The position numbers and the translations under genes were made by a program. DNA of 64,000 bases from Escherichia coli (lineage in GTDB: Bacteria; Pseudomonadota; Gammaproteobacteria; Enterobacterales; Enterobacteriaceae). Every line of letters starts with the position of its first letter. Position 1 is the stretch's first letter. Location: the NCBI RefSeq assembly GCF_048403405.1, contig NZ_CP183129.1; one strand, given 5' to 3'. The notes below the pieces were generated by a model, which worked only from the letters and a program-made list of their open reading frames with translations, searched no databases and was not told where the DNA came from. This document shows, piece by piece, positions 52,974-55,243 of this stretch.

Positions 52974-52998
52974 ACCCCGGCAAATGTCGGGGTTTTTT
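52974..52998 (+). terminator. lysS terminator
   Basis: ACCCCGG-caaatgt-CGGGGT followed by TTTTTT; overlaps the 3' end of convergent idi. Confidence 0.65.
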
Positions 52999-53545
52999 AA
53001 TTGTGCTGCGCGAAAGCAGACAACAATTTTCTTGCTTCACTATTGGCTGCCTGCATCACCATCCACGGACTGAACGCCCACGGCGTGGCATCAATACCGC
53101 GTAATACATCTGCTAAATCACACCATTGATAATCCATCACTTCATCATCGTTGATCTGTAATGCACTGGTCGTGCGTGCGGCAAATACCGGACACACTTC
53201 ATTTTCCACAATGCCATTCGGATCGGTGGCGCGATAGCGAAAGTCAGGATAGATAGATTCAGGAGGCGTAATTTCCACGCCAAGCTCATAACGGCAACGG
53301 CGGATCACCGCGTCTTCGTTGCTTTCTCCCTGTTGTGGGTGCCCACAAACCGAGTTAGTCCACACGCCAGGCCATGCTTTTTTGCTCAGTGTGCGGCGGG
53401 TAACTAATAATTGCCCCTTGGCATTAAACAGCCAACTGGAGAACGCGAGATGTAAGAGGGTGTCTGCCGTGTGTGCGGCATACTTTTCCAGCGTACCCGT
53501 GGGAACTCCCTGTGCATTCAATAAAATGACGTGTTCCGTTTGCAT
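52997..53545 (-). CDS. idi: isopentenyl-diphosphate delta-isomerase (Nudix), 182 aa
   Basis: 182 aa [51 protein letters not shown]... Confidence 0.9.
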
Positions 53546-53667
53546 AATTTCTCACATGTAATTCTAATCACTCATCATTATAGATAATTGAAGAGTGAAA
53601 TGATTAACCAAGTGAGCGTTTATCGACAACCGCCCGTTTTGAGCGGATGTCGACAGGTAAAAACCAT

Positions 53668-53793
53668 TTAAAAAAGCAGCATCATATATTTGAAGCGACT
53701 TTCAATGGCCATTGCAACACAGTCAGAAATGACAGGAATAGAGAGAGTAAAAAGCAACAACAGACTGAATATAGCGCGCATTAAAAGATTCAT
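53668..53793 (-). CDS. small hydrophobic protein (41 aa), possibly YqfG-like
   Basis: Minus-strand ATG (plus 53791-53793) 1 nt after the uacT stop; 41 codons to TAA (plus 53668-53670): MNLLMRAIFSLLLLFTLSIPVISDCVAMAIESRFKYMMLLF; below ORF-track cutoff; I recall a 41-aa small protein near idi in K-12 but cannot verify. Confidence 0.4.
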   Translation of the reverse strand: MNLLMRAIFSLLLLFTLSIPVISDCVAMAIESRFKYMMLLF

Positions 53794-53794
53794 A

Positions 53795-55243
53795 TTATTC
53801 TCCATGCTCATTTTTCTTCAGCTTGCGCATCAGAAGCCACATACGTACTGTCCTGACTTTTAAATCTTTATCAGAGACGGATTCCTTCACCAGATCAGCA
53901 TGATGCTGATAGCCATTAAAGAAGACGTTCAGCACAACGGCGCTAAGGGTTGCGAGCATAATGCCGCTATGCAGCAACGGTTGCAGTACGGCCGGTAACT
54001 TAGAAAAGAAATCGTGAGAGAGCGTCGGAGTCATGCCAACGCCGAGACTGATCGCCACAATATAGAGGTTGTAACGATTGGTGGTGTAGTTACAGCGCGA
54101 CAGAATTCGAATCCCTGTCGCCAGTACCATGCCGAACATCACCAGCCCAGCACCGCCCAGCACAAATTGCGGAATGGAGGCGACCAGCACCGCCATTTTT
54201 GGCACCATGCCAAACAGGATTAATATAATTCCCGAAGAAATACACACCCAGCGGCTATGAACGCGCGTCACGCTAACCAGGCCAACGTTTTGAGAAAATG
54301 ACGTGTGGGGAAAGCTGTTAAACGTTCCGCCTATCATTGTCCCTACGCCATCGACACGCAGCCCGCGAATAATATCGTGTGAAGAGAGTTTACGACCGAC
54401 TATTTCACCCAGTGCCAGGAACATCCCCATCGACTCGATAAACACGATGATTAACACGGCAGTCATGGTCAGAATGGAAACGGGATCGAAAATCGGCATA
54501 CCAAATGACATCGGCGTGACAATCGCAAACCATGAAGCATCATGTAGCCCGGATAAATTGACTTCATTCATCATCCACGAAAGTAAAAAGCCAAATACAA
54601 TCCCCAGTAATACGGCGACGTTGGACATAAATCCTTTCGCATAGCGAGTAATGAGCAAGATAAAAATTAAGACGGCAAAGGAGATACCTAAATAAACGGG
54701 ATTACCATATTGCGGATTCCCTTTACCTCCGGCGGCCCAGTCAATACCCACCTGAATGATGCTAAGCCCGATAGAAGTAATCACAACACCGGTAACCAGT
54801 GGCGGGAATAAAGGCATCAAGCGACCGATAAGTGGCGCTAATAATGTGGTGATAAAACCCGCGGCGATAGTGGCACCGAATATCCCCAGCAGGCCGATAT
54901 CCGGGTTCATGCCAATGGCTATCATTGGTGTTACAGCGGCGAAGGTCACCGACATAATCACCGGCAGGCGGATCCCCATAAAGCGGCCGATACCGATACA
55001 TTGCAATAATGTGACGATCCCGCAGCAAAAGAGATCCGAGCTAATGAGCATCGCAATAGCTTCTTTTGAGAGGCCCAGTCGGTCACCAATCATAAGAGGA
55101 ACAGCGACTGCACCTGCGTACATGACAAGGACGTGTTGCAGACCGAGTATGATCAGCTTTCCTGGTGATAATATGCGGTCAACCTCATCAGTTGGGCGGT
55201 CTTGCCCTGAAGATGAGGGAAGTTGGGAATCTATGGCGCTCAT
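53795..55243 (-). CDS. uacT: uric acid/xanthine permease (NCS2/NAT family), 482 aa
   Basis: Internal ATG gives MSAIDSQLPSSSGQDRPTDEVDRILSPGKLIILGLQHVLVMYAGAVAVPL...; ORF-track 525 aa over-extended. Confidence 0.88.
   Translation of the reverse strand: MSAIDSQLPSSSGQDRPTDEVDRILSPGKLIILGLQHVLVMYAGAVAVPLMIGDRLGLSKEAIAMLISSDLFCCGIVTLLQCIGIGRFMGIRLPVIMSVTFAAVTPMIAIGMNPDIGLLGIFGATIAAGFITTLLAPLIGRLMPLFPPLVTGVVITSIGLSIIQVGIDWAAGGKGNPQYGNPVYLGISFAVLIFILLITRYAKGFMSNVAVLLGIVFGFLLSWMMNEVNLSGLHDASWFAIVTPMSFGMPIFDPVSILTMTAVLIIVFIESMGMFLALGEIVGRKLSSHDIIRGLRVDGVGTMIGGTFNSFPHTSFSQNVGLVSVTRVHSRWVCISSGIILILFGMVPKMAVLVASIPQFVLGGAGLVMFGMVLATGIRILSRCNYTTNRYNLYIVAISLGVGMTPTLSHDFFSKLPAVLQPLLHSGIMLATLSAVVLNVFFNGYQHHADLVKESVSDKDLKVRTVRMWLLMRKLKKNEHGE

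Follow-up and report, generated by a model that had tools for sequence, protein, structure and literature searches.

YqfG, a small membrane protein encoded directly behind the urate permease gene uacT in enterobacteria, and its possible role as a permease partner

Introduction

It is not obvious why a reading frame of 41 codons should begin a single nucleotide after the stop codon of a urate permease gene, nor whether its product has anything to do with that permease. The question is raised by a stretch of 64 000 nucleotides of Escherichia coli DNA (RefSeq assembly GCF_048403405.1, contig NZ_CP183129.1), referred to here as the window. An initial annotation had pointed to a hydrophobic 41-codon ORF lying 1 nt past the uacT stop, in the spacer between uacT and idi and on the same strand as both; its coordinates, strand and spacing have been verified in the sequence. 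The features with which we are first concerned are as follows.

53668..53793, minus strand: yqfG, 41 codons plus stop, for a small single-helix inner-membrane protein (from the ORF list and RefSeq identity)
53795..55243, minus strand: uacT (ygfU), urate/H+ symporter of 482 aa (from the ORF list and the RefSeq annotation of the identical locus, WP_001295374.1)
52997..53545, minus strand: idi, isopentenyl-diphosphate isomerase of 182 aa (from the ORF list and RefSeq annotation)
53800..53803, minus strand: Shine–Dalgarno sequence GGAG of yqfG, 6 nt before its ATG and within the last uacT codons, GGA GAA TAA (read from the sequence)

Below, we describe the identity of the gene, the selection acting on it, what is known of its product, and the setting in which its homologues are found. 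The proposal that emerges, that YqfG is an accessory partner of the permease, is a tentative one and is weighed against its rivals as the evidence is given.

Identity of the gene

The uacT stop codon TAA occupies 53797..53795 and is followed by a single base (53794) and then by the yqfG ATG at 53793..53791; the frame closes with a TAA at 53670..53668, and its product is MNLLMRAIFSLLLLFTLSIPVISDCVAMAIESRFKYMMLLF. The spacer between uacT and the start of idi at 53545 is 249 nt long, uacT, yqfG and idi are all on the minus strand, and lysS, on the plus strand, is convergent with them.

The ORF corresponds to a gene already on record for E. coli, yqfG, and is not new as a feature. The initial annotation had considered, without being able to confirm it, that it might be a small protein located near idi in K-12; this was right, RefSeq annotating the ORF as yqfG, ‘protein YqfG’. 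The product is 100% identical to RefSeq WP_001050745.1 (yqfG of locus L002). The YqfG of K-12 (b4684; WP_001010156.1) comes from the same uacT–yqfG–idi locus, has the same strand and the same length of 41 aa, and agrees at 40 of 41 residues (97.6%), with L3 here and F3 in K-12; the product of the window is thus an allelic variant. K-12 BW2952 and strain 118UI share the layout, with uacT ending at 1606, yqfG at 1608–1733, the antisense YqfH frame at 1730–1801 and idi starting at 1856 (locus positions).

A 401-nt region was matched in 5392 of 5426 complete E. coli genomes, 5350 of which have a single place covering at least 80% of the query. The yqfG locus is single-copy (a median of one place per genome among these complete genomes), and the annotation ‘yqfG: protein YqfG’ was present on 29 of 29 full-length rows sampled across the ranking. 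The region is without a match in 34 of the 5426 genomes, and a partial match in HUM3355 keeps 34 bp, inside idi. Rare E. coli and Shigella alleles of yqfG carry frameshifts or in-frame indels (for example P0064/P0086 and P0043/P0083), and duplications give YqfG variants of 43 and 45 aa (P0018 and P0024, among the E. coli population protein clusters). Searches of Pfam, NCBIfam, PADLOC, PDB sequences and Rfam returned nothing meaningful for the yqfG region, the only hits being ComGG (E = 0.2) and, at 20 bits where the gathering score is 100, an Enterococcus sRNA.

Translation start and coupling to uacT

The Shine–Dalgarno sequence of yqfG lies inside the permease gene, and the orthologues have an SD-like purine run at the equivalent site: GGTGA in E. 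albertii and the cryptic clades, AGGA in Citrobacter, GAGGA in contig L091 and AGGAG in Kluyvera. Translational coupling to uacT is inferred from the 1-nt or overlapping junctions combined with this internal SD. That the ORF is yqfG and that it is translationally coupled to uacT are, taken jointly, very probable.

A 47-aa version beginning at an upstream in-frame ATG (start 53811) was considered and rejected. From E. coli (MSMENN) to E. albertii (MSMVND) and Citrobacter (MNK), the extension changes in ways that are synonymous in the uacT frame. Because it is not conserved as protein, the annotated ATG is taken as the real start.

Selection on the coding sequence

The 3 kb around yqfG hold 47 ORFs of 20 aa or more. 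The length of the ORF is therefore not significant by itself, and the case for the gene rests on comparison with other genomes. The orthologue set (n = 12) includes E. coli K-12, the E. coli locus L082 (in which uacT is unusually diverged from the window, with dS 0.31), E. albertii, four cryptic-clade Escherichia, Citrobacter sp. R56, C. amalonaticus, C. enshiensis and one metagenomic contig. Conservation of the reading frame in close relatives had been set as a test of the ORF. All 12 orthologues have exactly 41 codons and an ATG 1 nt past the permease stop, so that the ORF stands. Variable sites number 22, 10 and 35 at codon positions 1, 2 and 3, respectively, an excess at third positions. 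Comparison of yqfG with the window by the method of Nei and Gojobori gave the following values.

E. albertii: dN/dS 0.03, with 7 synonymous changes and 1 non-synonymous change (binomial P = 1.6e-4)
Cryptic clades: dN/dS 0.12–0.14
Within and to the Citrobacter-type group: dN/dS 0.10–0.39

Within Escherichia, the range for yqfG is thus 0.03–0.14; in the same genomes it is 0.07–0.16 for idi and 0.01–0.04 for uacT. Four of the five other frames contain stops in all sequences. The fifth, frame -2, is antisense and locked in codon phase with yqfG; it is mostly free of internal stops, with a stop in L086, and its dN/dS reaches 1.18 at the Escherichia–Citrobacter distance. Its low dN/dS at short distance is explained by the coincidence of its third codon positions with those of yqfG. 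Two antisense ORFs that overlap yqfG, at 53690..53863 (plus strand, 57 aa) and 53647..53784 (plus strand, 45 aa), were considered as genes and rejected, neither being coding-like at greater divergence; the former owes its lack of internal stops in most Escherichia solely to a codon phase that mirrors yqfG.

Short ORFs abound in this AT-rich stretch, and yqfG might be taken for a chance ORF in a non-coding spacer. That explanation is refuted by the comparison, with its conserved frame and low dN/dS, by a motif shared across several genera (see below) and by experimental work on the protein, and we regard its probability as negligible. yqfG is a real coding gene under purifying selection.

YqfG as a membrane protein

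Akiyama et al. 2015 (PMC4597795) present YqfG as a small membrane protein to which no function had been assigned, and credit Hemm et al. 2008 with its discovery. TMHMM predicts a type II, N-in/C-out arrangement (PMC4597795), and the topology assigned to YqfG combines this prediction with N-terminal fusions whose N-terminus is forced to stay inside. An HA-MBP-YqfG fusion is integral to the membrane and is cut by RseP, remaining uncut by the inactive E23Q mutant; without RseP, it accumulates at full length (PMC4597795). Substitutions at I8 and L12 that destabilise the helix alter this cleavage (PMC4597795), and the residue numbers used in that study (I8, L11–L13, F15) match the YqfG sequence of the window. 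A later study places YqfG in class I of the RseP substrates, with cleavage observed whether RseP was supplied from a plasmid, from the chromosome or as the purified enzyme (Yokoyama et al. 2023, PMC10470546). These results on membrane integration and cleavage come from tagged constructs of the K-12 allele (PMC4597795, PMC10470546). The status of YqfG as an RseP substrate tells us how the protein is removed, not what it does.

The initial annotation had described a hydrophobic, TM-like small protein with a possible ‘lipobox-like SDC’; the first part of this description holds and the second does not. A lipobox follows the rule [LVI][ASTVI][GAS]C, which an Asp at -1 violates. In YqfG, the sequence is I-S-D-C, with Asp at just that position, and the cysteine is confined to Escherichia, all homologues from other genera having Gly, Ser or Ala in place of Cys25. 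A precursor of a lipoprotein or secreted peptide, with the N-terminal half as a signal peptide processed at SDC, would account for the basic N-terminus (R6), the hydrophobic stretch and the Cys at position 25. Against it stand the broken rule and the loss of Cys25 outside Escherichia, the full-length HA-MBP-YqfG seen without RseP together with its integral type II behaviour (PMC4597795), and searches of NCBIfam and Pfam that gave no lipoprotein match. Processing of this kind is extremely improbable, and published experiments handle YqfG as an uncleaved type II membrane protein (PMC4597795).

The family across Enterobacterales

A protein search with the single sequence found homologues in Escherichia and Shigella only. 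The view of yqfG as an Escherichia-only orphan did not survive a tblastn search of UacT loci and searches with profiles. The former brought to light relatives of YqfG in Kluyvera (31% identity) and in Citrobacter sp. R56 (54%); the latter, for which two large protein collections were used, yielded more clusters, with proteins of 38–41 aa annotated ‘hypothetical’. Those with species names belong to Klebsiella michiganensis, K. oxytoca and K. pasteurii (more than 1000 contigs), the Enterobacter cloacae complex and Citrobacter spp., and also to Apirhabdus apintestini / Erwinia sp. HR93. The family spans at least six enterobacterial genera and is without a Pfam or NCBIfam model.

Some members share only about 26–30% identity. 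P20, R33 and F34 nevertheless do not vary in an alignment of 33 sequences, and R6 and L14 hardly vary. The arginines R6 and R33 lie 26 residues apart, roughly one bilayer span of helix, with P20 mid-helix.

Genomic context behind the permease

In every context examined, the sORF lies directly 3' of a Xan_ur_permease gene of 482–490 aa. The junction and the downstream neighbour vary as follows.

Escherichia and Citrobacter: 1-nt spacer to the permease gene, idi downstream
Contig L091: 1-nt spacer, AraC-type regulators downstream and rha-like genes beyond
Klebsiella-type and Enterobacter-type loci L094, L095 and L098: ATGA overlap, 718-aa molybdopterin oxidoreductase downstream
Loci L096 and L097: 4 nt, 718-aa molybdopterin oxidoreductase downstream
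Locus L099: 51 nt, molybdopterin oxidoreductase downstream, with a gene call ending early at 139 aa
Kluyvera: 66 nt with its own AGGAG, terminator-like GC hairpin and T-run downstream

The divergent upstream neighbour is often a Fer4/Pyr_redox protein of 640–646 aa, which corresponds to YgfT/UacF of the formate-dependent urate pathway (PMC12507026). The Klebsiella-type and Enterobacter-type permeases have 44–46% identity to E. coli UacT, which is below that of UacT homologues from Burkholderiales, and share with it the C-terminal tail VRTVRMWLLxRKV.

There is some further detail at these loci. The cytoplasmic tail of UacT, VRTVRMWLL(M/L)RK(L/V), encoded at 53798..53860 on the minus strand, is nearly unchanged in L094, L096 and L098 despite the overall identity of 44–46%. 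In L094 to L099 (the K. oxytoca group, Enterobacter and others), the oxidoreductase gene starts 18–34 nt after the permease–sORF pair and encodes a protein of about 718 aa with an Fe4S4 N-terminus; these clusters also hold genes resembling those for xanthine dehydrogenase and YgfT/UacF. The same permease–oxidoreductase pair is found, without the sORF, in Serratia oryzae (L006). In C. freundii (L005), uacT abuts lysS in convergent orientation, and yqfG and idi are both missing; in the C. amalonaticus group, the order is uacT–yqfG–idi–lysS as in E. coli.

A search with the family HMM found no sORF in the UacT loci of C. freundii, Serratia oryzae, Pluralibacter, Hafnia, Edwardsiella, Aeromonas and Burkholderiales. 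As UacT orthologues occur without it, the small protein must be dispensable for the permease in general.

These observations bear in both directions on the suggestion that YqfG is a genuine small membrane protein whose function is unrelated to UacT, its position reflecting inherited order or a convenient site of translation. The several lineages that bear UacT and no sORF are in keeping with such a protein, as is the fact that the literature assigns YqfG no function. The adjacency, however, survives divergence of the permease to 44–46% identity, which neutral order rarely does; it is kept while the downstream neighbour varies among three unrelated gene types; and the junction is tight, by a 1-nt spacer or an ATGA overlap, in most lineages. 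We consider a function unrelated to UacT quite possible, with a chance that approaches an even one.

The hairpin, yqfH and the idi promoter

Three further features lie at, or just beyond, the end of yqfG.

53621..53655, minus strand: stem-loop UGUCGACA-U-CCGCUC-aaaac-GGGCGG-U-UGUCGAUA, starting 13 nt past the yqfG stop
53600..53629, minus strand: reported idi sigma-70 promoter, TTGTCG-18-AATCAT, its motif located in the window
53600..53671, plus strand: yqfH, a 23-aa antisense sORF, MINQVSVYRQPPVLSGCRQVKTI, RefSeq ‘protein YqfH’, with a 4-nt overlap with the 3' end of yqfG and spanning the hairpin

The hairpin is an interrupted stem of 14 bp with an MFE of -24.1 kcal/mol (z = -4.95), a value that none of 200 shuffles equalled. 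Among nine Escherichia and Citrobacter sequences, pairing is kept in 88.9% of cells, against at most 59% with the partner slid, and four pairs have changed on both sides. In Escherichia, the hairpin is without a U-tract, and a terminator scan gave no call there. It is probably the 3' end of the uacT–yqfG transcript, acting as a terminator or stabiliser.

A constitutive RpoD promoter directed toward idi is listed for the yqfG–idi spacer in a Genomic SELEX table (Shimada et al. 2014, PMC3946193); a simple promoter scan of the window made no call at this site. The -35 element TTGTCG falls within the 3' arm of the hairpin, and formation of the hairpin and use of the idi promoter might interfere with each other. 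Because the hairpin follows yqfG and idi has a separate promoter, yqfG is grouped with uacT and not with idi.

With yqfG so tightly coupled to the uacT stop and a strong hairpin soon after it, it could be that the act of translation matters and not the peptide, the ribosomes protecting the 3' end of the uacT mRNA, blocking Rho termination or tuning read-through into idi. The amino acid sequence, however, is itself under selection: dN/dS lies well under 1, and even at about 26–30% identity P20, R33 and F34 do not vary. The ORF also persists at loci with a gene other than idi downstream, and the peptide is membrane-inserted and a specific RseP substrate (PMC4597795, PMC10470546). Such a role for translation as such is improbable.

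The 23-aa yqfH was reported by VanOrsdel et al. 2018 (PMC6001520). It is not conserved: L082 and L003 have a frameshift in it, in the cryptic clades a stop interrupts it at codon 18, and Citrobacter lacks it. Such sequence conservation as it has is probably a by-product of the hairpin, although detections of yqfH by tagging and MS have been published. The presence of an antisense sORF and transcript that overlap the 3' end of yqfG also invites comparison with type I toxins of the Hok/Ldr/Ibs style, with antisense control exerted from the yqfH side; YqfG is small and hydrophobic, and its susceptibility to RseP is common to HokB and HokE (PMC10470546). Yet yqfG is a single-copy gene that is inherited vertically and keeps its place behind one permease gene; the antisense overlap amounts to 4 nt, and yqfH is not conserved. 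In the RseP study, growth inhibition was reported for HokA and none for YqfG (PMC10470546), and a PADLOC search gave no match. A toxin-like peptide is thus very improbable.

Structure models

AlphaFold2 (AF2) models YqfG alone as one continuous helix of residues 3–40, with a mean pLDDT of 84 that is best in the first 30 residues. Its association with the permease was modelled as a linker fusion, UacT-(GS)15-YqfG, using a paired alignment of 10 fused sequences (the query and nine orthologous pairs) with 34 permease-only sequences. The permease core had pLDDT 80–93; the UacT tail appeared as a low-confidence helix. For the YqfG part, the pLDDT values were 59/74/72/58 in the fusion against 91/94/87/66 alone, with pLDDT as the sole readout of this linker fusion. 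Judged by pLDDT, the fusion model contains no sign of a confident docking of YqfG on UacT; this fits a function unrelated to the permease, but by itself speaks neither for nor against binding.

A possible role for YqfG

The preferred reading nonetheless places YqfG beside the permease. It is predicted to form a single TM helix in the inner membrane, with the N-terminus, on the R6 side, in the cytoplasm and the conserved C-terminal S-R-F...LLF end toward the periplasm. yqfG would be the last cistron of the uacT transcription unit, the end of which we infer from the hairpin and the separate idi promoter. Ribosomes finishing uacT may re-initiate at yqfG, and coupling of this kind would lead to co-production of the small protein with the permease. 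RseP, whose cleavage of YqfG is published, would then remove unassembled YqfG.

From sequence and gene order, YqfG may be an accessory or modulatory partner of the permease, a proposal to which we give somewhat less than an even chance. In a fuller scheme, the family would supply UacT-type NCS2/NAT urate permeases with a dedicated partner of one helix: its synthesis would be coupled to theirs, it would bind them within the membrane via P20 and R33–F34 and tune their stability or transport cycle, and RseP would clear the unassembled copies. This scheme is put forward tentatively, as conceivable and appreciably short of an even chance.

A connection between YqfG and UacT was absent from the literature searched, and no small partner of any NCS2/NAT permease was described there. 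What is added here is the family-wide link of YqfG to urate-type permeases, in clusters for purine and urate catabolism, which gives rise to a testable hypothesis of function. If the dedicated-partner scheme were true, YqfG would be the first small-protein subunit for the NCS2/NAT family and would itself have gained a function. The matter is of some relevance to engineered probiotics that over-express YgfU/UacT against hyperuricaemia.

Comparison with known systems

As a type II protein with a tiny periplasmic part, YqfG resembles further RseP substrates, a set of small membrane proteins and remnant signal peptides with YkgR, Blr, YshB, HokB and HokE (PMC10470546); it is unrelated to them in sequence and genomic context. 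A second comparison is with small proteins that act beside larger ones in the membrane.

Several transporters and enzymes of the membrane have small single-TM partners: KdpF in KdpFABC, CydX with CydAB, AcrZ with AcrB, and MgtS with MgtA and PitA. YqfG is without sequence similarity to any of these four. Like them, it has fewer than 50 aa, consists of one hydrophobic helix and is dispensable in some lineages. With KdpF and CydX it has more in common, the likeness being in genetic architecture only: each is encoded in the same operon as a large membrane protein, and for YqfG, whose operon with uacT is a probable one, the arrangement is kept across taxa in the contexts sampled.
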